Source: Escherichia phage Barry
Reading direction: 5' to 3' (one strand)
Sequence record: LR880803
Length of the DNA: 64,000 bases
Shown: positions 2,447-54,118 of the stretch, one piece after another
How the letters are laid out: each line of letters starts with the position of its first letter
How positions within the stretch are numbered: the first letter of the stretch is position 1
Made by a program: the position numbers and the translations under genes
Notes under the pieces: generated by a model
Told to the model about the DNA's origin: nothing
Seen by the model: the letters and a program-made list of their open reading frames with translations, nothing else
Databases searched by the model: none

Positions 2447-3556
2447 ATGACTACTAAAACTAAAGCACAGATTGACGCAGAAATTTACAAACTGGTTAAA
2501 GAGGGTAAGCTGACTAAAACAGCTATTGCACAGAAATTTAACACCTCAACCCGTTCAGTCGGTCGTGCTGTAGAGCGTCATGAAGCAACCTTAAAAGGGA
2601 ATAAAAAGGCAACTTCTACACCAGCTACGAAGACTTTAAAGCAAGTTGCTAAGACCTTTAAAAAGAAATCTGACAAGCCAGTTAAAAAGGTTGTTAAAGA
2701 GGATGTACAGAAAGCTCCGGTAAATAAACTGCATGAAGCTATGCAGAATGGCAACCAGATTGAGTACATGATTACTGGTGACTCTGTTATCATGACTTTC
2801 GGTGCAGATTCTGAAATCGTTGAATCTACCCATCCGAACTACAAAGAAATCGTGATGGCTGTTGTATCCGGTGAGTATAAGAAAGCTTTCGAACTGATGA
2901 ACATTCGTAAGTCTATCGAAAACTTCACTCAGGGTGCTATCACCATCAAAGGTGACAAGTTATTCTACGGTGCTGTTGAGATGCGTTCTACTCTGGTTGA
3001 CCGTATTCTTCACATGATGAAGACTGGAGATAAGGGTTTTGAACGCCTTGTGATGTTCTTCGAAAAACTGATGGAAAACCCATCTAAAGATTCTGTAGAA
3101 CAACTTTGGGGATTCGTATCTCACCTTGATGTTGAAATTGATGAAGAAGGCTACATCATTGGTTGGAAGAAAGTCTCTACTCGTGAAGGCAAGCTGGTTG
3201 ACTCCCACACCTACAGAGTACCTAATGATTTGGGTAACATTGTAGAAATGCCACGTTGGATGGTTGATAATAACCGTAACGTGACTTGCTCTCAAGGTCT
3301 TCACGTTGGTGCTTGGGATTACGTTCGTTGCTTCTCAGGTGATACAATCCTGAAGGTTCGTGTCCATCCACGAGATGTTGTATCTGTTCCAACTGATTAC
3401 AACGATATGAAGATGCGTTCTTCTCGTTATGAAGTTGCAGCAATCGTTGATAATCAACGTAAAGTGCTGAAAGAATGGGATGGCAAGACTGAAGCTTTGC
3501 ATGTCATCGTTGGTACTGCTGGAGAACTTATCTCTCAACGTAAACGTGAAATCTAA
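2447..3556 (+). CDS. rIIB: rIIB-like protein
   Basis: 369-aa ORF directly after rIIA; C-terminal block KVRVHPRDVVSVPTDYNDMKMR and CSQGLHV resemble T4 rIIB as I recall it; SD GAGAG upstream. Confidence 0.75.
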   Translation: MTTKTKAQIDAEIYKLVKEGKLTKTAIAQKFNTSTRSVGRAVERHEATLKGNKKATSTPATKTLKQVAKTFKKKSDKPVKKVVKEDVQKAPVNKLHEAMQNGNQIEYMITGDSVIMTFGADSEIVESTHPNYKEIVMAVVSGEYKKAFELMNIRKSIENFTQGAITIKGDKLFYGAVEMRSTLVDRILHMMKTGDKGFERLVMFFEKLMENPSKDSVEQLWGFVSHLDVEIDEEGYIIGWKKVSTREGKLVDSHTYRVPNDLGNIVEMPRWMVDNNRNVTCSQGLHVGAWDYVRCFSGDTILKVRVHPRDVVSVPTDYNDMKMRSSRYEVAAIVDNQRKVLKEWDGKTEALHVIVGTAGELISQRKREI

Positions 3557-3573
3557 TAAGTAATTTCTTAAAA

Positions 3574-3596
3574 GGCTGCTTCGGCGGCCTTTTTTA
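3574..3596 (+). terminator. rho-independent terminator after rIIB
   Basis: hairpin GGCTGC-TTCG-GCGGCC followed by TTTTTTATTT. Confidence 0.6.
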
Positions 3597-3656
3597 TTTG
3601 TATTTTGTGCAGAGTGCTGTATAATTGTTGTCACGATAAACTAAACAGGAGAACCA

Positions 3657-4205
3657 ATGAAGAAATTGATTCTAGGTTTGTGCTTAATGTTTACAGCACA
3701 CTTATCTTACGCAGTTGACTGCCCAGAGCTATCAATTAGCCAAAAAGTAAACATGTTAAAAGCTTACCAGTATGGTGAGAATAACATGGGTAAAGGTTGG
3801 GGTATCACTCTAGCTGCTATAGCCTTACAAGAGTCAGAGTTAGGTCTGAAGGTAGAGAATAAAAAGACACATGACTATGGTATTTTCCAGAATCACTTGA
3901 AGACTGTTGTAAAGCGTAACAAAATTAGCCCTAATGTGGCTAAAAAGAAACTCTTAAGAGACTTTGATTATGCTGCGAAGGAAACGCACAAAGAACTTGA
4001 GTTTTGGACAAAGGTGCATGGTCAGCCAAAGTCAAAGAAGACTTTACAAAAAGTTTTAGCATCATATAATGCTGGGTATTCGTACAGAATCCCTAAAGCT
4101 AAGAAATATTCTCAAGATGTTTATAACAATATGAAAGTAATTGCTCAATGTGAATTTGCAACAAACATTTCTAAGGTAAACCATGAAAAAATTAAGAAAG
4201 TCTGA
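3657..4205 (+). CDS. secreted lytic-transglycosylase-like protein (SLT-type motif)
   Basis: N-terminal signal peptide MKKLILGLCLMFTAHLSYA; AIALQESELG and YGIFQ resemble the SLT catalytic Glu/Ser and GLMQ blocks; SD AGGAG upstream. Confidence 0.45.
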   Translation: MKKLILGLCLMFTAHLSYAVDCPELSISQKVNMLKAYQYGENNMGKGWGITLAAIALQESELGLKVENKKTHDYGIFQNHLKTVVKRNKISPNVAKKKLLRDFDYAAKETHKELEFWTKVHGQPKSKKTLQKVLASYNAGYSYRIPKAKKYSQDVYNNMKVIAQCEFATNISKVNHEKIKKV

Positions 4206-4878
4206 TGAAGTATTGTGCCATGCTTATGACTTACATCCTCATGAGTTAGGTCTTGATTCCTGTGTATGGACTCCAGAACAGTGCAGGGATTTTGAAGACA
4301 CCGCAAGAGAAGTTGTATGTTCACTTGAAGATTTCCACACATCAGAACCAATTGTGAACGTTGTGGACAAAAAGACTGGGAAATCCATAGGTGTAAAACA
4401 TGATAGCTTAGTCATAGTCAACAAAGACCTTGTAGAGAAAGGTAATCTTATCTTAGCAGATATTGATGGAGTTCTTACAAATTTTAATCACGAAGATTGT
4501 TCAACGGAATTGACTGACGGTTCATTCTCGCAGTATACCAATCTTCTTGATTCTGTAAGAGCAAAGCCGACGTATGTTTTCAATATCATTGATGCAATTG
4601 CTAATCATGCTGCTGTTGGACTCTTGACAGCGAGAGGCGAATCTCAGAGAATACCTACTGAGATGTTTTTAAGGCATAACACAGAGCATGACTACATGCT
4701 TTTTATGCGTGGTTTTGGGACTAACTCTATAAGTGCAGAAAGTTTGAAAGTGAGGATGATTCAGTCTTGCATTCTGCCTTACTTTAATATAGTATGTTTT
4801 ATAGAAGATACAGAGAAGAATGTGCAGAAGGTGAACAGAATCCTTCCACACATCAAAACCATGTTAGTTAAACATTGA
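4183..4878 (+). CDS. HAD-superfamily-like hydrolase (possible nucleotidase/phosphatase); start uncertain
   Basis: 231-aa ORF; motif LILADIDGVLTN fits HAD motif I DxDG(T/V); overlaps previous gene by 23 nt. Confidence 0.35.
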   Translation: MKKLRKSDEVLCHAYDLHPHELGLDSCVWTPEQCRDFEDTAREVVCSLEDFHTSEPIVNVVDKKTGKSIGVKHDSLVIVNKDLVEKGNLILADIDGVLTNFNHEDCSTELTDGSFSQYTNLLDSVRAKPTYVFNIIDAIANHAAVGLLTARGESQRIPTEMFLRHNTEHDYMLFMRGFGTNSISAESLKVRMIQSCILPYFNIVCFIEDTEKNVQKVNRILPHIKTMLVKH

Positions 4879-4888
4879 GAGAAAACTT

Positions 4889-5353
4889 ATGAACAATATC
4901 ATTACGGTAGCACTGGACGTTACGGCAAACAAATCTGAAGTAGTTCGTAACATTATCAAGAGCAACTTTGAGGGTAAAATCTTCCGTGCTGTCAATGTAA
5001 AAGCAGACGGCAACATCCGAGAGTATCGTGCTCTTTTGAATGTTAAGAAACACGTAAAAGGTTCTGGCTCAACGACAGCACACAAAGAAAACCTGATGAC
5101 CATCTATGATATGGGGATGGCTTCAGAATTAGGTGCTGAAGGTATCGTTAAAGAAGGTGCTCCGTATCGTTCTTTCAATCTGGAAACTGCTCTCATGCTT
5201 TCCTTTACAAGTGGTTCTAAAACAACTACTTATCTCTTTACTGATGCTGCAACGGTATCTGCTATCAAGGATAGCACTGTCAAAGCTGGGGTAGCTGCTG
5301 CTGCAAAAGCTTCTTCGATGGCTGCAAATGTCCTTGCTAAAGTCCTCGGTTAA
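4889..5353 (+). CDS. hypothetical protein
   Basis: 154-aa ORF, SD GAGAGAAAA upstream, followed by a terminator. Confidence 0.5.
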   Translation: MNNIITVALDVTANKSEVVRNIIKSNFEGKIFRAVNVKADGNIREYRALLNVKKHVKGSGSTTAHKENLMTIYDMGMASELGAEGIVKEGAPYRSFNLETALMLSFTSGSKTTTYLFTDAATVSAIKDSTVKAGVAAAAKASSMAANVLAKVLG

Positions 5354-5365
5354 GGTTAAGATACA

Positions 5366-24949: not shown

Positions 24950-25026
24950 CTCTGTTTAGCTCAGATTGGTAGAGCGTTCCGTTTGGGGCGGTAAGGCCGG
25001 AGGTTCAAGTCCTCCAACAGAGACCA
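24950..25026 (+). tRNA. tRNA, anticodon read as TGG (Pro)
   Basis: acceptor CTCTGTT/AACAGAG, T-arm GGAGG-TTCAAGT-CCTCC, CCA encoded. Confidence 0.6.
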
Positions 25027-25033
25027 AATTAAT

Positions 25034-25111
25034 GTTCCAGTAGACAAAATGGTATAGTCACCACTCTTTCAAAGTGGATATCTGAGGGTTCAAATCCCTT
25101 CTGGAACGCCA
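25034..25111 (+). tRNA. tRNA, anticodon TTC (Glu)
   Basis: acceptor GTTCCAG/CTGGAAC, anticodon stem CCACT/AGTGG loop CTTTCAA, CCA encoded. Confidence 0.65.
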
Positions 25112-25203
25112 GTTTTGACAGAAGACCAATTACAGCAAACTTAATCTTATTCATCTGAAGGTAAATCGGACAAAGAAGAGATTTGGTCTGGTCATTAAGA
25201 ATT

Positions 25204-25279
25204 GCGGGTATAGAGAAAGGGCGTCTCACATGTCTCATTAGCATGGTATCGGCAGGTTCGACTCCTGCACCCGCCTCCA
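25204..25279 (+). tRNA. tRNA-like, anticodon CAT (Met/Ile2 type); boundaries approximate
   Basis: T-arm GCAGG-TTCGACT-CCTGC, anticodon stem CATGT/GCATG loop CTCATTA; acceptor pairing imperfect. Confidence 0.45.
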
Positions 25280-25357
25280 ATTTTGCAGAAGACCGTATTC
25301 AGCAACAAAATACTTTTTTGCGGATAAAAGAAAAAACACGGTCTGGCAATGTATTAA

Positions 25358-25434
25358 GGTTAGGAAGCACATAAGGTATGTGCGGTCGCCTGTTAAGCGA
25401 ATGGCACAGGGTTCGAATCCCTGACTAACCGCCA
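25358..25434 (+). tRNA. tRNA, anticodon GTT (Asn)
   Basis: acceptor GGTTAGG/ACTAACC, T-arm CAGGG-TTCGAAT-CCCTG, CCA encoded. Confidence 0.6.
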
Positions 25435-25442
25435 AATTAAAT

Positions 25443-25530
25443 GTGTCGTTATCCCGTAGATGGTAGCGGTGGGGACTGTAAATCCCTTGTCATTGAGACT
25501 CGGTAGGTTCGACTCCTACACGGCACACCA
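25443..25530 (+). tRNA. class II tRNA (long variable arm), anticodon GTA (Tyr)
   Basis: 88 nt; acceptor GTGTCGT/ACGGCAC; T-arm GTAGG-TTCGACT-CCTAC; loop CTGTAAA. Confidence 0.65.
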
Positions 25531-25535
25531 ATAAA

Positions 25536-25612
25536 GGCTATGTAGTTTAACTGGAGAAAATACTCCCCTGTCACGGGAGATGATGTGAGTTCAAGTCTCA
25601 TCGTAGCCGCCA
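25536..25612 (+). tRNA. tRNA, anticodon GTC (Asp)
   Basis: acceptor GGCTATG/CGTAGCC, anticodon stem CTCCC/GGGAG loop CTGTCAC. Confidence 0.65.
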
Positions 25613-25634
25613 ATTTTGAGAGGGCTATTTAGCC

Positions 25635-25672
25635 CCTCCCTTAAAGAGTTCTTACGAGTATTCTTTAAGGGA
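25635..25672 (+). ncRNA. 12-bp perfect hairpin between tRNAs (possible processing signal or small RNA)
   Basis: CTCCCTTAAAGA-gttcttacgagtat-TCTTTAAGGGAG. Confidence 0.35.
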
Positions 25673-26042
25673 GCAGAAGACCAAATACAGCAAGAATGTA
25701 TGAAATTTCAAGCCAATTTAATTTTGAAAATTTAAAACTTGGTCTGGCTCAACAAATTTACAGAAGGCCGTTTACAGCAAAACTTAAACAATCTATTTCT
25801 CCGGTACAGAAAAGGCGAAGGTTCGATTCCTTCACTCGGCAGATGTCGAGTTGGTGTAATGGTAGCACTTAAGATGATAAACAACGGTCTGGTAATTACC
25901 TTTGTAGATAAGTTATTAAGCTTACTTGTGAGTATGCGACCACAAAGGGTGAATGGGTAAATTCTAGATTTAAACCCAAAAAAGGCACATCGCTACAGAC
26001 CTTAAGCAAGTCTGGGTAGCTTATCTACAAAGATAATTTAAT

Positions 26043-26118
26043 GGAAGTGTAGCAGAATGGTGATGCGGCAGACTTTTAATCTGACAGGCGATGGGTTCGA
26101 ATCCCTCCACTTCTACCA
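26043..26118 (+). tRNA. tRNA, anticodon TTT (Lys); weak T-stem
   Basis: acceptor GGAAGTG/CACTTCT, loop CTTTTAA, T-loop TTCGAAT, CCA encoded. Confidence 0.5.
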
Positions 26119-26122
26119 ATAT

Positions 26123-26199
26123 GGTTCAGTCGCAGATAAGGTAATGCAAGGGTCTCATAAGCCCTATGAATGTGGGTTCGATTCCCATCTGAACCTCCA
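26123..26199 (+). tRNA. tRNA, anticodon CAT (Met/fMet/Ile2 type)
   Basis: acceptor GGTTCAG/CTGAACC, loop CTCATAA, T-loop TTCGATT. Confidence 0.6.
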
Positions 26200-26200
26200 A

Positions 26201-26276
26201 GCTGGTATAGTTAAGAAGGTTATAACACTCCCCTGATAAGGGAACATCGGTGGTTCGATTCCACCTACCAGTACCA
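26201..26276 (+). tRNA. tRNA, anticodon GAT (Ile)
   Basis: acceptor GCTGGTA/TACCAGT, T-arm GGTGG-TTCGATT-CCACC, loop CTGATAA. Confidence 0.6.
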
Positions 26277-26290
26277 ATTTCAATAAAGTT

Positions 26291-26319
26291 GTTGACATTG
26301 AGATGTGACTACTTTATAG
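26291..26319 (+). promoter_or_regulatory. internal sigma70-like promoter in the tRNA island
   Basis: TTGACA - 17 bp - TATAGT. Confidence 0.5.
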
Positions 26320-26522
26320 TAACCTTAGTTTTCGTTGCGTAGCGTCTATTTTGCAAATTTAAAATAAATGCAAACGACAATGTTTTTCTGGCAGTAGCTT
26401 GATAGGCTAAACACCAGTGAGGTCTTCCAATCCCTCATCAAAGAATTTGGCGTACTCGCCCACGGTATGATTAATAAGGTGGGCATCTTTAAGGGCTTTC
26501 TAAGAGAGTCTTTAAAGATAAT

Positions 26523-26599
26523 GCACCCTTAGTTCAATTGGATAGAGCAACGGTCTTCTAAATCGTTAGTTACAGGTTCGAATCCTGTAGGGTGTACCA
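26523..26599 (+). tRNA. tRNA, anticodon TCT (Arg)
   Basis: acceptor GCACCCT/AGGGTGT, D-arm GTTCAATTGGATAGAGC, T-arm ACAGG-TTCGAAT-CCTGT. Confidence 0.65.
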
Positions 26600-26742
26600 A
26601 ATAGTTAGCAGATTACTTAGACGGCCTTAGCGGGTCTTCCTGTAGGGAGGTGGTCTGTATCTCATGTTTTCCAGAACATGTAAATAATCTGAGAAGAAGC
26701 TTGACAGTGTTGAGATAATACGGTAAGCTTCGAATTATAGTA

Positions 26743-26820
26743 TGGGACGATGTTAAGACTCTAAGGCATGAGCAACGGCCTCCAAAACCGTTTCAAAGGG
26801 GTTCAACTCCTCCGTCCCAT
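26743..26820 (+). tRNA. tRNA, anticodon CCA (Trp); CCA not encoded
   Basis: acceptor TGGGACG/CGTCCCA, loop CTCCAAA, T-loop TTCAACT. Confidence 0.55.
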
Positions 26821-26837
26821 GCTAAAGATTGTTTCGG

Positions 26838-26924
26838 AGAGAGTGGCGGTCAACGGAGACCAACCAGCCTTGAAAACTGGTGCTGCTGGAAACGGTACGG
26901 GTTCAACTCCTGCACTCTCTGCCA
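26838..26924 (+). tRNA. class II tRNA, anticodon TGA (Ser)
   Basis: 87 nt; acceptor AGAGAGT/ACTCTCT; loop CTTGAAA; long variable arm. Confidence 0.6.
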
Positions 26925-26948
26925 AAATAATTTTTAAGGTGGTGATTA

Positions 26949-27289
26949 TGAAGAAAGGTTCAGTAGGTGAAATTGCTACACAATTAGCTTTCCTCAAAAG
27001 AGGTTATGAAGTATATTCACCAGCTACAGATAATGCAAAGTATGACTTTCTAGTTCACAAAGATGGTTTGATTGAAACTGTTGAGGTAAAATCAACATCA
27101 GTCAAAAGAGGTGAACTTTGGAGAGTGCAACTGAAAAGAGTTCGTTCTAACAAGAATGAAAATAGAATAATGAATTTTGATAACTCTCAAGTTGATTACT
27201 TAGCTGTTTACATTGAACCACTTGATAAAGTCGTCATCTACAAAGCTAAAGATGTCAAGTCTAAGACTGAACTTAGCTTAAAGATTTAA
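26949..27289 (+). CDS. small PD-(D/E)xK-type nuclease-like protein embedded in the tRNA island (Hjc/resolvase-like motif order)
   Basis: ATG at 26949 behind strong SD AAGGTGGTGA; GEIATQLAFLKRGYEV ... YDFLV ... VEVKS matches the E...D...E-x-K arrangement; track ORF 26768..27289 upstream part overlaps tRNAs and is not coding. Confidence 0.45.
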
Positions 27290-27530
27290 AGCCAAGCTTC
27301 ATTCGGATGTCGCTTTGGTATCCCTCGTGTATTGTCGTACACTGTCAAAGCACCTAGTAGGTGTCACGGAGAAGAGATAATATCAAGCTCTCCAAAGGTT
27401 CTAGTCACCGGATTAAACAAGACTATGCAAAGACCTATTTAGGTCTTTTTAGAGGGCTTCTAAGGTTATTAGTCGCTTGTTGTGGAACCTTGTTGCTCAG
27501 GTTCTTAGAAGTTCTCTAAAAAGATTTAAT

Positions 27531-27607
27531 GCACCTATAGCCCAACTGGTAGAGGCAGCAGACTTAGAATCTGCTCAGTGTGAGTTCGAATCTCTCTAGG
27601 TGTACCA
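27531..27607 (+). tRNA. tRNA, anticodon read as TAG, short variable arm (identity uncertain)
   Basis: acceptor GCACCTA/TAGGTGT, anticodon stem GCAGA/TCTGC loop CTTAGAA, T-loop TTCGAAT. Confidence 0.5.
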
Positions 27608-27614
27608 AATTAAT

Positions 27615-27690
27615 GCAGGTGTAGCAAAATGGTTATGCGGCTGACTCTTAATCAGTAAGACGATGGGTTCAATTCCCTCCACCTGTACCA
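27615..27690 (+). tRNA. tRNA, anticodon read as CTT (Lys), paralog of 26043..26118
   Basis: acceptor GCAGGTG/CACCTGT, loop CTCTTAA. Confidence 0.5.
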
Positions 27691-27696
27691 AACAAT

Positions 27697-27772
27697 GGGG
27701 TCATAGTTTATATGGTTAAAATTCGAGTTTTGCAAACTTGGGAACTGAGTTCAATTCTCAGTGACTCCACCA
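27697..27772 (+). tRNA. tRNA, anticodon tentatively TGC (Ala)
   Basis: acceptor GGGGTCA/TGACTCC, T-arm CTGAG-TTCAATT-CTCAG. Confidence 0.5.
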
Positions 27773-27778
27773 ATTAGT

Positions 27779-27853
27779 GCATCCATAGTTTAAACGGGAA
27801 AATTACAGTCTTCCAAACTGAGGTTGAGGGTTCGATTCCCTCTGGATGCTCCA
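27779..27853 (+). tRNA. tRNA, anticodon TCC (Gly)
   Basis: acceptor GCATCCA/TGGATGC, T-arm GAGGG-TTCGATT-CCCTC, loop CTTCCAA. Confidence 0.6.
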
Positions 27854-27860
27854 AATTAAT

Positions 27861-27935
27861 GCTCCTATCGTATAATTGGTTATTACGGTTGCCTTGTAAG
27901 CAACTTATCAGGGTTCGAGTCCTTGTGGGAGCACC
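27861..27935 (+). tRNA. tRNA, anticodon TGT (Thr)
   Basis: acceptor GCTCCTA/TGGGAGC, anticodon stem GTTGC/GCAAC loop CTTGTAA. Confidence 0.65.
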
Positions 27936-27939
27936 AATT

Positions 27940-28028
27940 CAGAGGTCAAGTGAAAGACCGCTTTGAGTCAACTGAAGACCGTAACAAATTCCACGAAGTT
28001 GAGTTAGCGGCACAACTTCAGACCTCTT
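27940..28028 (+). ncRNA. structured inter-tRNA spacer (candidate small stable RNA or processing element)
   Basis: long-range complement CAGAGGTC ... GACCTCT enclosing inner hairpin GAAGTTG...CAACTTC. Confidence 0.3.
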
Positions 28029-28032
28029 TCAT

Positions 28033-28107
28033 ACTCGCTTAGTTTATATGGTAAAACATCACCCTTACAAGATGAAGAAAAAGGTTCAAGTCCTTTAGTG
28101 AGTACCA
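28033..28107 (+). tRNA. tRNA, anticodon TAC (Val)
   Basis: acceptor ACTCGCT/AGTGAGT, D-stem GTTT/AAAC, T-arm AAAGG-TTCAAGT-CCTTT, loop CTTACAA. Confidence 0.55.
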
Positions 28108-28108
28108 T

Positions 28109-28186
28109 GTTCCAGTATCCCAATTGGCAGAGGATGCAAGCTCAAACCTTGTATTAGTGACGGTTCGAATCCGTCTTGGAACACCA
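28109..28186 (+). tRNA. tRNA, anticodon read as CAA, short variable arm (identity uncertain)
   Basis: acceptor GTTCCAG/TTGGAAC, T-arm GACGG-TTCGAAT-CCGTC. Confidence 0.5.
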
Positions 28187-28191
28187 ATTTT

Positions 28192-28267
28192 GCAGGATTA
28201 GTTCAAATGGATAGAGCAACAGTCTACGAAGCTGTTAATAGGGGTTCGAATCCCTTATCCTGCGCCA
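28192..28267 (+). tRNA. tRNA, anticodon ACG (Arg)
   Basis: acceptor GCAGGAT/ATCCTGC, D-arm GTTCAAATGGATAGAGC, loop CTACGAA. Confidence 0.65.
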
Positions 28268-28286
28268 ATTTAAAGAGGCTATTTAG

Positions 28287-28844
28287 ATGAGATATTTGAA
28301 GTATGCTTCATGGATTTTCTTAGCTTTGTTAGAGCCATTTGCAGCAATCTTAGCAGTTATCTTAGCACCTTTTGTAGTTCCATTCTACAGTGAGAAGAAA
28401 GGACACTTACCTTTCGGGTTCAGATGGATGGAGACATATGACAACCCAATTGATGGTGATGAAGGTCACGTTAAAAGATGGGCTAATATTAGATGGATTG
28501 GTAAACTAGGTGTCTACATGCAAAGAGTCGGATGGCTCTGGAGAAACAAAGCTTATAACTTCTCTTACCATGTATTAGGAAGAGATGTAAGAGATGTTAC
28601 TAAGTGGAAAGGTAATATCAACGTAAGTTCTGACCCCGAAGATAATCAGACAGGTTATCTCCTAATGTGGAACAGTAATGCTTGGGGATTATTCGCTTTT
28701 ATCCCATCAATTAAAATCTTTGGTAAACAATTTTACTGGAGAATTTATATTGGATGGAAACTAAAAAGTGTTGTCCCAGAAGAAAGAGCATTCTCAAGGG
28801 AAAGAGTTATGTTGGCATTCTTTATTCATCCACTGAGAAAGTAA
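28287..28844 (+). CDS. hypothetical Trp-rich membrane protein embedded in the tRNA island
   Basis: 185 aa; SD AAAGAGG; N-terminal hydrophobic segment FLALLEPFAAILAVILAPFVVPF. Confidence 0.45.
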   Translation: MRYLKYASWIFLALLEPFAAILAVILAPFVVPFYSEKKGHLPFGFRWMETYDNPIDGDEGHVKRWANIRWIGKLGVYMQRVGWLWRNKAYNFSYHVLGRDVRDVTKWKGNINVSSDPEDNQTGYLLMWNSNAWGLFAFIPSIKIFGKQFYWRIYIGWKLKSVVPEERAFSRERVMLAFFIHPLRK

Positions 28845-28852
28845 AGATTTAA

Positions 28853-28928
28853 AGGGGATTAGTTTACAAGGTTAAAACCTCGGTCTTTGAAATCGAAGAA
28901 GTTGGTTCAATTCCAACATCCCCCGCCA
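28853..28928 (+). tRNA. tRNA, anticodon TTG (Gln); 1:72 mismatch
   Basis: T-arm GTTGG-TTCAATT-CCAAC, D-stem GTTT/AAAC, loop CTTTGAA. Confidence 0.55.
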
Positions 28929-28930
28929 AT

Positions 28931-29009
28931 GCTCCATTACTCCAATTGGCAGAGAGGCCAGACTTAAAATCTGTGTTATGTATCGGTTCGAATCCGATAT
29001 GGAGTACCA
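28931..29009 (+). tRNA. tRNA, anticodon read as TAA (identity uncertain)
   Basis: acceptor GCTCCAT/ATGGAGT, T-arm ATCGG-TTCGAAT-CCGAT, loop CTTAAAA. Confidence 0.5.
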
Positions 29010-29014
29010 AATTT

Positions 29015-29090
29015 AGCGGTATAGCATAACTGGCAATGCAGCAGCCTCTGAAGCTGTCCTATTAAGGTTCAAATCCTTATGCCGCTGCCA
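29015..29090 (+). tRNA. tRNA, anticodon CTG (Gln)
   Basis: acceptor AGCGGTA/TGCCGCT, D-stem GCAT/ATGC, loop CTCTGAA. Confidence 0.55.
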
Positions 29091-29121
29091 CTTCTAAGGA
29101 TTCTTGCGAGAGTCCTTAAAT

Positions 29122-29197
29122 GTGGCCTTATCATAAACGGTAATGACCCATGCTGTGAACATGGTCTATACGGGTTCAAATCCCGTAGGTCACCCCA
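29122..29197 (+). tRNA. tRNA, anticodon GTG (His)
   Basis: acceptor GTGGCCT/AGGTCAC, anticodon stem CCATG/CATGG loop CTGTGAA, T-arm ACGGG-TTCAAAT-CCCGT. Confidence 0.6.
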
Positions 29198-29203
29198 ATT
29201 TAT

Positions 29204-29279
29204 AGTCCAAGTAGCTTATATGGTTAAAGCGCGTGTCTGAAAAACATGAGAAGAGGGTTCAAATCCCACTGGACTACCA
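29204..29279 (+). tRNA. tRNA, anticodon GAA (Phe)
   Basis: D-stem GCTT/AAGC, loop CTGAAAA, T-loop TTCAAAT, CCA encoded; boundaries approximate. Confidence 0.55.
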
Positions 29280-29296
29280 ATTTCAAAGGTGCTTAA

Positions 29297-30030
29297 TGAA
29301 AGAGATGACAGAACAAGGTAAGGAGATTTTTAATCTCTTAAAAACTGGTAAAGGGTTCTCTAACCCGCTTATTACTGGTGCAGCAGTTCTCGGTGGAACC
29401 GTAGCTGCTTCTACATCACTTGTAAGCTCTATTAGTTCTGTAACAGACCCTACAATGAAGGAGAAACTTGTTGCTGCTGGACTTACAACAGTCCTTCTAA
29501 ACAGCTTTACAACAAGCCTTACAAGCACTACAGCAACTACTAAAACTCTGACAGACTACGGTCAAAAATCTATTGATGAGTTTTCATCACGTATGCAGGT
29601 AGCAAAGGGGTATTCCAATGTTATGGGTGCAGCAGGAGAACAAGTTGGTTGTACACCATTCAGTGGTATCATGGGTGTTGCTACAGAGTATGGTCAAAAA
29701 GCTATTGACATGATGAACAGTACACTAGATAGTGTTAATGGTGTGTTAAGTGACTTACAAGATGCTATTGATAAGGGTCTTGATACTGTTTCTGATTTAG
29801 CTAACCAAGCTGTCAGTAAGATTAATGAAGGTATTTCAAAGATTACAGCTTATGCAGATGAAGTTGTGCAGATGATTGAAGAAGAAGCTGCCCTTATTGC
29901 AGAGTACCTTAAAACGAATATCAATGGGTTCTTAGCAGGTATCTTACCAGACTGGTTTGACGATGCTTGTAAAACTGGTGTGATTGACACTATTGCAACA
30001 CCAGAAATGAAGAGCGCATTACAGAAATAA
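29297..30030 (+). CDS. hypothetical Ser/Thr/Ala-rich protein
   Basis: ATG at 29297 (MKEMTEQG...); track ORF start 29233 lies inside the preceding tRNA. Confidence 0.45.
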
Positions 30031-30031
30031 T

Positions 30032-30124
30032 GGAAGATTAACCCTAAAAGGTAAGGGAGCAGTTTGCTAAACTGCCAGTAGCTGAGAAATCGGTGTACCA
30101 GTTCAAGTCTGGTATCTTCCTCCA
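30032..30124 (+). tRNA. class II tRNA, anticodon GCT (Ser)
   Basis: 93 nt; acceptor GGAAGAT/ATCTTCC; anticodon stem GCAGT/ACTGC loop TTGCTAA; T-arm ACCAG-TTCAAGT-CTGGT. Confidence 0.65.
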
Positions 30125-30128
30125 ATTT

Positions 30129-30204
30129 GAATCCGTGACAGAAATGGATATGTGCCTGTCTGCAAAACAGGTTTATAAGGGTTCGAGTCCCTTCGGATTC
30201 TCCA
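30129..30204 (+). tRNA. tRNA, anticodon GCA (Cys)
   Basis: acceptor GAATCCG/CGGATTC, anticodon stem CCTGT/ACAGG loop CTGCAAA, T-arm AAGGG-TTCGAGT-CCCTT. Confidence 0.65.
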
Positions 30205-41907: not shown

Positions 41908-49923
<8,016 letters not shown>

Positions 49924-49925
49924 TA

Positions 49926-51074
49926 ATGGCAGTAGGTGAAATTCAAATTAGTGCCTTGCCTCAAGCAGCCTTACCAATTGACCTTAGTGATATCTTCCAT
50001 CTTAAACAGGGTATCGAGGATAAGAGATGTACTCTTGAGCAATTACTTGCCCCACACTCAAGCCTAAGAAATAATCCTCATGGTGTTACTAAGACACAAA
50101 TTGGTTTAGATAACGTTATTAATGCTCTACAGTTAGTTGCTGAAAATAACTTATCAGACATTGTTAATGTAGCTGAGGCAAGAGCAAATCTACAGATTAT
50201 GTCTTCAGAAGAGGTTAATAATCTTATTCAACAACATATTGATGATAAGAGCAACCCACACAACACCACTAAGGCACAGGTTGGGTTAAGTAATGTTCAG
50301 AACTGGGTGACATCTAACCTTTATAATGAGGATGCAGATAAGTATGCTACAGCAAGAGCAGTAAATAACTTGTACAAGGCTGTTCAGGCTTCTTATCCAG
50401 TAGGTACTATCCATCTCTCTATGAATCCTGCAAACCCTTCTACATATTTAATTTGTGGAGGTACTTGGGAGTTAGTTTCAAAAGGAAGAGCACTTGTAGG
50501 TTATGATAGTGCTTCTAGGCCAGTTGGTTCAACGTTTGGTTCGCAGACTACTGCACTGACAGTTAACAACATTCCTGCACATACTCACTCAGTATACGTC
50601 ACTGGTGGTGGTCACACACACGGTGCAACGGCCTCTATCAGTGCTTTTGACTACGGTACTAAAGGGACTACAACGTTTGACTATGGAACAAAGACTGTAT
50701 CTACTTATGACTATGGTAACAGAACAACCAGTGCTGCTGGTTTAACACAAACAACATTCATTAATCGTGGTTATGCTGATGGTGGTTGGAGAGGTTTATC
50801 AGTTGAGGGGGCAAGCTATGACCCAAGAGCTACGCTGACAACAGCTAACAACCACACTCACTCTGTAGCAATTGGTGCGCATAATCACACAGTTGGTATT
50901 GGTGCTCATAGCCATTCTGTTGCAATTGGTTCCCACAACCACTCAGCAACAGTAACAGTAACCGGAGCAGGTGAGCATTCGCACTCTGGCACAACTGGCA
51001 CAACTGGTTCTGGTCAAGCATTTAGCGTTGAACAGCCATCCTTCGTATTGTATGTATGGCAGAGAACAGCTTAA
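49926..51074 (+). CDS. tail fiber protein with His-box (HxH) receptor-binding tip
   Basis: repeated HTHS/HNHT/HSHS/HNHS motifs; C-terminus GSGQAFSVEQPSFVLYVWQRTA shared with the next fiber. Confidence 0.65.
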   Translation: MAVGEIQISALPQAALPIDLSDIFHLKQGIEDKRCTLEQLLAPHSSLRNNPHGVTKTQIGLDNVINALQLVAENNLSDIVNVAEARANLQIMSSEEVNNLIQQHIDDKSNPHNTTKAQVGLSNVQNWVTSNLYNEDADKYATARAVNNLYKAVQASYPVGTIHLSMNPANPSTYLICGGTWELVSKGRALVGYDSASRPVGSTFGSQTTALTVNNIPAHTHSVYVTGGGHTHGATASISAFDYGTKGTTTFDYGTKTVSTYDYGNRTTSAAGLTQTTFINRGYADGGWRGLSVEGASYDPRATLTTANNHTHSVAIGAHNHTVGIGAHSHSVAIGSHNHSATVTVTGAGEHSHSGTTGTTGSGQAFSVEQPSFVLYVWQRTA

Positions 51075-51084
51075 TTTCTTTACA

Positions 51085-51104
51085 GGGGCTTTATAGCCCC
51101 TTTT
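51085..51104 (+). terminator. rho-independent terminator
   Basis: GGGGCTTTATAGCCCC followed by TTTT. Confidence 0.5.
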
Positions 51105-51120
51105 AAGAGGAAAATTTATA

Positions 51121-53472
51121 ATGGCAGATTACAAGTTGAGTGAATTAAACTCAATTGATACAATTCGTTCAGACGACCTTCTTCATGTCAGGGTTAAAAA
51201 GAGACCTGAAATGCTGGGTGATGAAGACCGTCGAATGACCTATCAAGACTTCTTAGCATCTTTTAAACTAGAAAGGTTTGTCCAGATTGCTGGTAGCACT
51301 ATGACGGGTGACTTAGGAATTGTCAAGTTACTTTATGGTGGTAAGGCAGTATTTGACCCTACAGGTTCTTCTGAGATTACTATGGGGGATGTTTTAAAGG
51401 CTTTTAAAATCAATGCAAATGGTCTTAAACTAACTATTGCAGATGCTTCAAGGTCTGCAACTGTTTACCATACTCTTAATAAGCCAAGCCCTAATGAACT
51501 TGGGATGAGAACTAATGAAGAGAATGATGCAAGATATGCAAGGTTGGCTGTAACAAACACATTCTCTAGAAATCAGAACATTCAAAGTGATGGTAATGCA
51601 CTTCGCCTTAGAAACCAGATTGCAAATAATGCACAATACATTGAGGGTGTAAACCTAGATGGTTCAGCTAGATGGTGGGTTGGTATTGGTAGCAATGGCG
51701 AGGATGCAGTAAGCCTGTATAACAGCAAATACAACTCAGCAGTGATTGTTGCAAGCAATATCTCTGTTAATAAGTCTTTAGCAATCACTGGTCAAGTTCA
51801 GCCTTCTGACTTCTCTAACTTAGATGCTAGATACTTTACTCAGACAGCAGCTAATCAGAGATTTGCGCAGTTAGTTGGTAATAATACCTTCAGTGGTTTA
51901 AACACATTCAGTAATAATGTTAATGTGAACTCTGATGGTGCTGCTATCATTCTAAAAAATAAAACGGCCAATGATACTCTGTTCATCCTAGCAAGAGACA
52001 GTGAAAACAATAATTTGTGGTATATTGGTAAAGGTGATGTAACCTCTAATATCACGATTTATGATTATAATGGTGACACTTCTATTAAATTAAACGCGTC
52101 TGGTGTAACATTTAATAAGGGTGTAAAAATCACTGGTCAAGTACAACCTTCTGATTGGACTAACATTGACTCTCGTTATGTTCTTATTGGTTCATACGCA
52201 AATCTTGCTAAGAAGAATGAAGCTAACACATTCACTTTACAGCAGAATATTCAATCTGATGGTGAAGCATTAAGAATCTACAGCAAGGCTCAGAATAATT
52301 CTTCTTACATTGTTGGTAAGAATACTGATAACACAAATAAGTGGTTTATCGGTTGTGGTACTAATGGTTCTGGTACGGCATCATTCCATAACTACTTGAC
52401 TGGTGCAAGACTCGATTTAGCTGACGAAATTCTTCTGTCTAAATCTCTACAGATTACTGGACAGGTAAAACCTTCTGATTGGTCTAACTTAGATGCTAGA
52501 TACTTCACTCAGTCAGCAGCTAATCAGAGATTCATGGTTGCAGGTTCTACAGGAGAAGCTACAGAGCAGAATGCAGATGGTGTGGCATGGAACGCTAAAA
52601 CAGGCTTATATAATGTAACATCACCAAATGGTGATTACACATCACTTGTATTTCAAATGTATCAGGGAGTGTCCTCTTCTACTGCCTGTGCGCAACTAAA
52701 GTTCCAGTATAAAAATGGTGGGATGTGGTACAGAACATCTGTAGACAGTAAAGGTTTTGAGGCTAAGTGGTCTAAGGTTTACACAGAGGCTCAGAAACCA
52801 ACCCCTTCAGAGCTTGGTGCATACACTAAAGCTGAAACTGACCAGAAGATTGCACAGGCAGTAAGTGACTCTACAGACCTTAACAAAATCTATCCAGTGG
52901 GTATTGTGACGTGGTTTAACAGTAATGTTAACCCTAATACAGCACTGCCTGGTCTAACTTGGACGTATCTGAACAATGGTGTTGGTAGAACTATCAGAAT
53001 TGCAGCAGCAAACGGTTCAGATGTTGCTACAACTGGTGGTTCAGACTCTGTGACGTTAGCTGTTGGGAACTTGCCTTCACACACTCACAGTTTTTCTGCG
53101 ACTACCTCATCGTTTGACTACGGAACAAAAAACACTAACACGACTGGTGCTCACACACACTCTGTAAGTGGTTCTACTTCATCTGCTGGTAACCACAACC
53201 ACGCTATCTCGTGGATTGGTCAGAACTCTACACACTATTCTGGTGGTGGTGGTGGTAAAATCGGTACAGGTCCGGGTTACACTGATGCTGCTGGTGCGCA
53301 CACCCACACAATCTCTGGTACTGCTACTTCTGCTGGTAACCATGCTCACAGTGTTGGTATTGGTGCTCACAGTCATACAGTTAGTGGTAACACTGGTGGT
53401 ACAGGTTCTGGTTCAGCATTTAGTGTTACTAACCAGTTCTATAAGTTAATGGCTTGGGTGAGAACTGCTTAA
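51121..53472 (+). CDS. long tail fiber protein with three internal ~120-aa repeats and His-box tip
   Basis: three repeats ending ITGQV(Q/K)PSD(F/W)(S/T)N(L/I)D(A/S)RY; C-terminal HTHS/NHNH/HTHT/NHAH/HSHT motifs and [22 protein letters not shown]. Confidence 0.7.
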
Positions 53473-53551: not shown

Positions 53552-53746
53552 ATGCCTACAATCCTAGCAATTCTTCTAAAAAATCTAGGTAGTTTCTTCT
53601 GGAAACTCATTTTATCCCTTCTGAGTGAATACATGATTGAGAAAGTGTTCTTTAAGCTTGCAAGATACCTTGCGAGTAAAACAGACACACCTATTGATGA
53701 TGAGTTCGTAGATAACTTAGAAAGAGCTTTTAAGGGGGAGAAATAA
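53552..53746 (+). CDS. small hydrophobic protein (holin-like candidate)
   Basis: 64 aa; N-terminal hydrophobic segment, charged C-terminus. Confidence 0.3.
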   Translation: MPTILAILLKNLGSFFWKLILSLLSEYMIEKVFFKLARYLASKTDTPIDDEFVDNLERAFKGEK

Positions 53747-54118
53747 ATGAAGTGGCTAGAGGAAGCTTTTAAAAATAATATTGGTGCAATTGTAGTTGGT
53801 ATTTTTAGTGTTATCGGGATGTATACCACTATGCAAGTTTCAAGTGGTAAGCAAGAAGTGTCTGTCACAACAAAGTTACAGCAGCTAGATAATTATTCCA
53901 AAAGTAACTATTCAGCTATTCGTGATTTACAGTCTGACATGAGACTGATTCAGCTAGGGATGGAGAACCAGAAAGTCCAGTTAGAGAATGTTAAGGGTGA
54001 GAATGCGAAACTTACCAAAACTCTTGATAAATTCTCTGACAGTGTGAACAATCTGGCCCAATCAGTATCAGCCTTGCAAGCTATTACTGAAAAGAACACA
54101 AAGAATACTGAAAAATAA
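53747..54118 (+). CDS. membrane-anchored coiled-coil protein
   Basis: 123 aa; TM segment IGAIVVGIFSVIGMY then heptad-like region. Confidence 0.35.
   Translation: MKWLEEAFKNNIGAIVVGIFSVIGMYTTMQVSSGKQEVSVTTKLQQLDNYSKSNYSAIRDLQSDMRLIQLGMENQKVQLENVKGENAKLTKTLDKFSDSVNNLAQSVSALQAITEKNTKNTEK

Follow-up and report, generated by a model that had tools for sequence, protein, structure and literature searches.

The window analysed here, 64,000 nucleotides (nt) of DNA from Escherichia phage Barry (sequence record LR880803), contains two adjacent open reading frames (ORFs) at positions 49926–53472, which an earlier note made from the sequence alone had read as a pair of tail fibers. ORF A (49926–51074, plus strand) encodes 382 amino acids (aa) and ORF B (51121–53472, plus strand) encodes 783 aa. 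The two are very probably the genes for the short (A) and long (B) tail fibers of a Felixounavirus myophage, with tips of the T4 gp37 type. The DNA of the region is 99.7% identical to that of Escherichia phage fjerdesal, and the 261 phage records that match it are nearly all Felix O1-type phages of Escherichia, Salmonella, Shigella and Citrobacter; we therefore take the window to be part of a Felixounavirus genome. The ORF A protein is 100% identical to its fjerdesal counterpart, and the ORF B protein is ~100% identical to the proteins of phage Barry and fjerdesal. Consecutive ORFs of 489, 285, 100, 382 and 783 aa reproduce the order and lengths of bas63_0023 to bas63_0027 in phage Bas63 (JohannRWettstein), and the gene order of the locus is common to Bas63 and six other relatives. 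Cryo-electron microscopy (cryo-EM) of Bas63 assigned gp23–gp27 as wedge 2, wedge 1, long-fiber platform, short tail fiber and long tail fiber, with gp25 as the T4 gp9-like point to which the long fiber attaches (PMC12609058). In phage Sf14 the equivalent fiber pair is gp52 and gp53. The corresponding genes in the window are as follows.

49621–49923, plus strand: long-fiber platform protein, 100 aa, equivalent in position and length to bas63_0025 (Bas63 gp25); matches phrog_4141.
49926–51074, plus strand: short tail fiber gene (ORF A, 382 aa), counterpart of Bas63 gp26; matches phrog_2097 (tail fiber) with E = 1e-127.
51121–53472, plus strand: long tail fiber gene (ORF B, 783 aa), counterpart of Bas63 gp27; matches phrog_4277 end to end.

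Both proteins end in clusters of histidine pairs (HxH), as the earlier note had observed. Seven such motifs start at residues 219, 230, 310, 319, 328, 337 and 351 of A, and six at residues 654, 678, 692, 727, 741 and 750 of B. In 2000 composition-preserving shuffles the mean number of HxH motifs was 0.95 for A and 0.28 for B, with maxima of 5 and 3, respectively. The attribution of these clusters to T4-type His-box tips was borne out by comparisons with the structure of the T4 gp37 tip (2XGF), which both C-terminal regions match in phmmer searches with single sequences (E = 3.2e-14 for A and 3.3e-15 for B) and in searches with the profiles of the two fiber families (E = 1.3e-25 and 1.3e-19). 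By BLASTP against the T4 gp37 tip, A shows 32% identity (97 bits, E = 2e-29) and B shows 40% (114 bits, E = 3e-36). The motifs of A are divided into two on the outgoing and five on the returning strand, five of the seven aligning with T4 motifs 1 and 4 to 7; those of B comprise three outgoing and three returning motifs aligned with T4 motifs 1 to 6. With the short-fiber family profile, HxH motifs are aligned to all seven T4 motifs. Judged by these alignments, both C-terminal regions are predicted to be receptor-binding tips of the T4 gp37 type.

The histidines are conserved among relatives, which the earlier note had named as the property on which its proposal depended. Conservation was measured in the 120 best matches to the long-fiber protein of this genome, a set biased towards its relatives, and in 71 short-fiber homologues from several genera. 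In the long fiber all 12 HxH histidines are conserved at a level of at least 0.99, and the invariant columns include H654, H656, H678, H680, H729, H741, H743, H750 and H752. In the short fiber the same level is reached by 8 of 14 (H219, H221, H230, H232, H310, H312, H337 and H339), with H219, H221, H230, H232, H337 and H339 among the invariant columns. The six less conserved histidines are lost only by insertion or deletion of 9-residue units or in distant genera: H319–H330 are absent in ~20% of homologues through deletion of one or two whole units, and H351 and H353 are conserved at 0.77. As ~20% of the homologues lack one or two of these units, each encoded by 27 nt, the length of the short-fiber needle seems to change by gain and loss of units.

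The domains of the short fiber are listed below.

49926–50345, plus strand: residues 1–140, baseplate-binding N-terminus and helix-and-turn shaft motifs NPHGVTKTQIGLDNV and NPHNTTKAQVGLSNV.
50346–50579, plus strand: residues 141–218, collar of the T4 gp10 C-terminal type; Pfam PF21939 Gp10_C, E = 1.6e-17.
50580–50621, plus strand: residues 219–232, ascending needle strand with two HxH motifs (HTH219 and HTH230), the four histidines invariant in the 71 homologues.
50622–50852, plus strand: residues 233–309, three FDYG(T/N)(K/R) units and an unusually large head, the presumed receptor-contact region and the least conserved stretch.
50853–50984, plus strand: residues 310–353, descending needle strand with five HxH motifs (310, 319, 328, 337 and 351), of which 310, 319, 328 and 337 align with T4 gp37 motifs 4 to 7.
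51006–51071, plus strand: residues 361–382, C-terminal motif GSGQAFSVEQPSFVLYVWQRTA shared with the long-fiber C-terminus, with which it aligns; presumed final strand back to the collar.

Residues 1–140, whose baseplate-binding role is taken from the Bas63 paper (PMC12609058), are 68–85% conserved in the homologues, and a comparison of A with B found no sequence similarity between the N-termini of the two fibers. A motif at residues 68–95 (window 50127–50210; L..NLSD..NV..AR.NL) matches six tandem repeats in the PDB structure 9zd7, ‘short tail fiber gp92’ (profile E = 8.5e-15), and can thus be regarded as a widespread fiber-shaft repeat. Full-length A scores 65.2 bits against PF21939 Gp10_C (cutoff 27), its collar matches the T4 gp10 entries 2fkk and 5hx2 in the PDB, and the collar is the best part of a monomer model predicted with AlphaFold2 (AF2), at a predicted local distance difference test score (pLDDT) of 76–85. 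In the alignment with the T4 gp37 needle, HTH230 falls on its first HxH. The descending strand is overlapped by a 27-nt tandem array at 50846–50948, the coding sequence for the needle's 9-residue units (A/G)IGAH.H.V.

The head is variable, residues ~261–300 having 12–24% identity to the homologues, the lowest in the protein; it is identical in Bas63. The 80-residue gap between the HxH strands is the largest in the 71 homologues, in which 34–45 residues are typical, and 51 of the 71 carry nine HxH motifs. The form found here, with seven HxH motifs, three FDYG units and the 80-residue insert, thus belongs to a minority. This minority tip is common to Bas63, finno, skuden and heid, and it is 85% identical to that of Salmonella phage PC79-13. 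The C-terminal motif is 76% conserved, with E369, Q370, S372, Y376, W378 and R380 invariant. In the AF2 monomer, which was built from an alignment of 37 sequences and has an overall mean pLDDT of 56 with reasonable confidence in the collar and last strand only, a strand is placed at residues 375–380 within a block of pLDDT 72–82 (residues 371–382). A Foldseek search with this model against the PDB returned nothing significant, the best match being T4 gp10 (E = 0.15).

The long fiber has a more elaborate shaft.

51121–51540, plus strand: residues 1–140, baseplate-binding N-terminus, first shaft domain and linker; 91–99% conserved in the 120 homologues.
51541–51882, plus strand: residues 141–254, repeat 1 (shaft domain 2) and linker; Pfam PF20744, repeat hidden Markov model (HMM) E = 7e-43.
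51883–52212, plus strand: residues 255–364, repeat 2 (shaft domain 3) and linker; repeat HMM E = 5e-39.
52213–52524, plus strand: residues 365–468, repeat 3 (shaft domain 4) and linker; repeat HMM E = 6e-42.
52525–52866, plus strand: residues 469–582, shaft domain 5 (similar to the Mu tail fiber S; Pfam gp37_C) and linker; PF12604, E = 2.7e-18.
52867–53079, plus strand: residues 583–653, collar; Pfam Gp10_C, 98% conserved in the homologues.
53080–53376, plus strand: residues 654–752, needle (HxH 654, 678 and 692 ascending; 727, 741 and 750 descending) with a small head at ~695–726.
53404–53469, plus strand: residues 762–783, shared C-terminal motif, identical in 112 of the 120 homologues.

The earlier note had described three repeats of ~120 aa in this protein, each ending in ITGQV(Q/K)PSD(F/W)(S/T)N(L/I)D(A/S)RY. 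There are exactly three copies of this motif, at residues 222, 337 and 445, and their spacing of 115 and 108 aa makes the estimated length slightly high. The repeats are 36–49% identical in pairwise comparisons, with hhalign profile–profile probabilities of 99.9–100%, and Pfam reports three copies of PF20744 gp37_trimer in B (E = 6e-66). In the DNA the repeat ends are 75–83% identical and lie 345 and 324 nt apart. Neither the repeat HMM nor hhalign detected a fourth or fifth repeat in B; no homology to the repeats was detected for domains 1 and 5, which resemble each other only in a linker-like stretch, the linker of domain 1 and that after domain 5 (hhalign probability 78%). The AF2 monomer of the long fiber (mean pLDDT 51) was used only for its pattern of secondary structure and for fold matches of the shaft. 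Its repeats and domain 5 are modelled at pLDDT 65–87 (58–81 with beta strands in repeat 1), the tip lies below 35 and the N-terminus is unmodelled. The secondary structure consists of five beta-rich blocks, the first below pLDDT 40, with helical linkers between them, and the best Foldseek matches are the Mu fiber 8ju3, the T4 gp34 rod (4uxg, 5nxh) and T7 gp17. Given the five blocks and these matches, the three repeats probably correspond to the middle three of the five domains published for Bas63, and from their sequences these three appear to be tandem duplications. Repeat 3 also matches the T7 gp17 structures 4a0t and 4a0u by sequence, and domain 5 matches the Mu tail fiber structure 8ju3 (E = 2e-21), which is at the same time the top Foldseek match. 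The collar aligns with those of the short fiber and of T4 gp37; its score against Gp10_C is borderline (22 bits for full-length B and 27.3 bits for the tip alone, at a cutoff of 27). The needle contains four stretches of Pfam Phage_fiber repeats.

The two proteins are homologous over their C-terminal ~220–240 residues. An alignment of the C-termini (A140–382 with B568–783) by BLASTP gives 33% identity (100 bits, E = 3e-27) and runs to the shared ends (GSGQAFSVEQPSFVLYVWQRTA in A), in agreement with the related final segment pointed out in the earlier note. The closest DNA matches of the two genes cover 49 nt at 78% and 22 nt at 91%. As A and B have no long stretch of near-identical DNA in common, recent gene conversion between them was rejected. 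The absence of such DNA, and an identity of 33% between A and B compared with 32% and 40% to T4 gp37, lead us to regard the tips as old paralogues, which stand about as near to T4 gp37 as to one another, rather than a recently shared module. Of the idea that swapped shafts carry a shared tip, what stands is that the same type of tip is found on different shafts (helix-and-turn only in the short fiber, beta-rich in the long one). The suggested hotspot of host-range change likewise applies in part. Across relatives it fits the variable short-fiber head, but the tip of the long fiber is 70–99% conserved in the sampled relatives (the head ~70%, with 12 allele types), and that protein varies most in the cores of shaft domains 2–5, which are 45–58% conserved.

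The variation in the long-fiber shaft is distributed in blocks. In repeat 1, for example, the core is 54–56% conserved and the linker 86–94%. Sliding-window comparisons show that the DNA of heid is ~99% identical to this locus except in repeats 1 and 2 (44–67%), whose intervening linker forms a conserved island; in finno the differences are confined to repeat 3 and domain 5, and in skuden they extend to all four shaft domains 2–5. In heid, finno, skuden and Bas63 the identity falls from ~99% to ~45–55% at linker positions. Fibers of the finno type (843 aa) have a different cassette in place of shaft domain 5. In the Suspvirus SUSP2 the locus has a baseline of 76–86% DNA identity and repeat 3 (52213–52524) reaches 86–94%, which suggests that the cassette of repeat 3 may be shared across genera. 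Pairwise identities per domain are bimodal, either >85% or <50% with few values between. There are 11–26 allele types per domain (21 for repeat 2) and 82 combinations of them in 121 long-fiber sequences, counts that derive from a sample biased towards relatives of this genome. The breakpoints at linkers, the bimodal identities and the many allele combinations together point to cassette exchange at conserved linkers, and not gradual drift, as the probable source of variation in shaft domains 2–5.

The first of three possibilities listed in the Bas63 paper is that these domains vary by neutral drift in mutation-tolerant beta domains (PMC12609058). Conserved linkers and variable domain cores are what would be expected if only the linkers were constrained. 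Drift does not readily account for genomes that are ~97–100% identical on both sides of a domain, drop abruptly to 44–67% DNA identity and recover at the next linker (heid, finno and skuden), nor for the bimodal identities, the adjacent alleles found in many combinations, or the SUSP2 cassette that is closer across the genus boundary than the genome baseline. The pattern argues against the neutral-drift option left open by the Bas63 authors, and we consider this explanation unlikely. In another reading the HxH clusters would be mainly conserved DNA ‘His boxes’ promoting recombination of fiber genes, and not structural metal ligands. This role was classically proposed for T-even adhesins, and it would fit the 27-nt tandem array in A, of which B has a single copy at 78% identity, the homologues differing by whole 9-residue units, and the mosaic tips of relatives such as BPS17L1. 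Yet the histidines are kept in the protein even where neighbouring residues and the DNA have diverged, they align with T4 gp37 HxH motifs described as Fe-coordinating (PMC12609058), and the clearest breakpoints of the long fiber are at the shaft linkers, not at HxH units. Roles in recombination and in structure can coexist, and we find it very improbable that the former is the main one.

Slightly less probable still is the notion that the tips are heads of the T4 gp12 type, made of a collar and a knitted domain with a single zinc on one HxH, instead of multi-metal needles of the gp37 type. The collar does belong to the gp10/gp11/gp12-type C-terminal family (Pfam Gp10_C), ORF A is a ‘short’ fiber, one homologue is named ‘microcystin-dependent protein’, and several have the tail-collar domain PF07484. 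There are, however, seven and six HxH motifs and not one; no gp12 structure is found among PDB matches with the family profiles at E ≤ 1, and 2XGF matches through the whole needle, with five to seven HxH motifs aligned on the outgoing and returning strands. In addition, the Bas63 paper fits gp37-like tips to both fibers (PMC12609058), and several collinear metal sites are already indicated for the 98%-identical gp26. A gp12-type tip was rejected on the missing gp12 match and the multiple HxH motifs aligned to gp37. The assignment to gp37-type tips has to be set against several observations of its own. Searches of the PDB with single sequences and family profiles found no Felixounavirus fiber chain, and the AF2 monomers are poor (mean pLDDT 56 for the short fiber, and 51 for the long fiber with its tip below 35), so that the fold-back topology rests on homology and the Bas63 paper. 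The fiber density of Bas63 itself was too weak for side chains, and its topology comes from predictions fitted in low-resolution density (PMC12609058). The short fiber lacks counterparts of T4 motifs 2 and 3, and two of its motifs next to the collar (219 and 351) are additions with no equivalent in T4.

With gp37-type tips as the favoured reading, we can outline how the two fibers may be built. Beyond the homology, motif positions, conservation, repeats and mosaicism observed here, the trimeric state, fold-back topology and baseplate attachment would follow from the cryo-EM literature on Bas63. Each fiber is presumed to be a homotrimer with its N-terminus bound to the baseplate and a gp37-type tip at the other end. 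The tip would consist of a gp10/gp37-like collar, a six-stranded needle and a small head domain where each chain turns back, and the final strand (...AFSV...W.RTA) would return to the collar. Each HxH may point into the axis of the needle, and one metal ion there (iron in T4) would be held by six histidines, contributed by the same motif of the three chains. By analogy, binding of metal by these two proteins would provide up to seven sites in the short fiber and six in the long, stiffening the needle. Contact with the lipopolysaccharide (LPS) core, the putative receptor of both proteins, is likely to be made by the variable head at the distal end. In the long fiber, conserved helix-and-turn linkers would connect the five beta-rich domains of the shaft, and diversity in the genus could arise as whole domain cassettes are exchanged with breakpoints in the linkers and as the short-fiber needle gains or loses 9-residue HxH units.

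This architecture is already known and in print. In a 2015 study of phage VpaE1 (vB_EcoM_VpaE1), the C-termini of both gp74 and gp75 were found to be homologous to the T4 gp37 adhesin, and the receptor was shown to be an LPS-core carbohydrate (PMC4690856). The locus described here has the same Felix O1-type pair of fibers with gp37-like C-termini and differs in tip alleles and host specificity, as VpaE1 uses truncated cores of the E. coli B type (PMC4690856), whereas the nearest relatives of the window were isolated on K-12. The 2025 cryo-EM study of Bas63 described tips with a T4 gp37-like collar, needle and head on both fibers, the chain doubling back at the head to the collar; di-histidine motifs numbering seven in the short fiber and six in the long; five beta-helix repeat domains between helix-and-turn motifs in the long fiber, like the T4 gp34 rod; and variability across the genus in the tips and in long-fiber domains 2–5 (PMC12609058). 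The same paper describes the HxH motifs of T4 gp37 as coordinating Fe ions along the needle. In view of the VpaE1 and Bas63 papers, our finding is a correct reading of a known architecture. The window resembles Bas63 in locus, gene order, lengths (382 aa in both; 783 compared with 784 aa) and HxH counts (7 and 6); the short fiber is 98.2% identical to gp26, and the N-terminus and tip of the long fiber are 90–100% identical to those of gp27, its linkers being conserved as well. The long fiber as a whole is 71.4% identical to gp27, its shaft domains 2–5 being other alleles with 30–75% protein identity, and residues 691–694 read NHNH here instead of the HHNH of Bas63, so that the extra histidine noted in the paper is absent. 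In the GenBank record of Bas63 (MZ501086; locus positions 1806–2954 and 3001–5355) the 382-aa product is named ‘long tail fiber protein’ and the 784-aa product ‘tail fiber protein’, the reverse of the cryo-EM assignment.

Compared with the T4 gp37 tip (2XGF), the tips share the collar, the HxH needle, the head, a chain predicted to return to the collar, and the motifs FDYGTK and GIGAH.H.V; they differ in heads that are unrelated in sequence and, in the long fiber, in the lack of motif 7. The long fiber of T4 is assembled from gp34, gp35, gp36 and gp37, whereas the whole fiber is one polypeptide here. The shaft resembles the T4 gp34 rod (4UXG, 5NXH; PF20744) in its predicted repeated beta-rich domains and short helical linkers, with a Foldseek probability of 1.0 over ~410 aligned columns, at 13–15% sequence identity, with low TM-scores and from a low-confidence monomer model; no match of the long fiber to gp34 was found in the PDB at the sequence level. 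The similarity to the Mu tail fiber S (8ju3; PF12604 gp37_C) is located at residues 469–578 (E = 2e-21), where the module is an internal part of the shaft upstream of a gp37-type tip and is replaced in some relatives by another cassette.

The fiber genes are followed by two small ORFs on the plus strand. The first (53552–53746, 64 aa), directly after the long fiber, matches phrog_402, a family with function not known, and has no Pfam match; it is annotated in Bas63, BPS17L1 and SUSP2 and not in the near-identical fjerdesal record. The second (53747–54118, plus strand, 123 aa) is annotated as ‘holin’ in relatives and has weak Pfam matches of the coiled-coil type, all below the cutoff. No gp38-like (chaperone) gene is present after the fiber genes, where these two ORFs are next. 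Further on, the opposite strand carries genes for thymidylate synthase and dihydrofolate reductase, as named in the annotation of relatives. A cluster of 26 tRNA genes at 24950–30204 (plus strand) is typical of Felix O1-type genomes. The fiber locus is also carried, at 72–92% identity, by records labelled Campylobacter phage A132 (MG065664) and Staphylococcus phage SA1 (UNVERIFIED_ORG), both of them probably the result of mislabelling or contamination.

Wide use is made of Felix O1-type phages in Salmonella typing, biocontrol and therapy, and it is the fibers that set the host range of these phages. Our results leave the current understanding of these fibers unchanged. Since the short fiber of the Bas63 type is nearly unchanged here, the published structural model of Bas63 transfers directly. 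The long fiber represents a different set of shaft cassettes, and the conserved linkers are natural junctions for the engineering of chimeric fibers. The cassette pattern is the only addition to published work, and a small one, as mosaic fiber genes are commonplace. It leads us to speculate, tentatively and with the odds against it, that shaft domains 2–5 are not inert spacers and that they are exchanged as cassettes, even across genera, under diversifying selection. The cassettes could act as lateral secondary surfaces for glycan binding or as targets of host defence, functions that the Bas63 paper lists as open possibilities (PMC12609058) and between which the cassette pattern does not discriminate. 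If the shaft is indeed under diversifying selection, the host range of Felix O1-type phages would be set along the whole fiber and not by the tip only.

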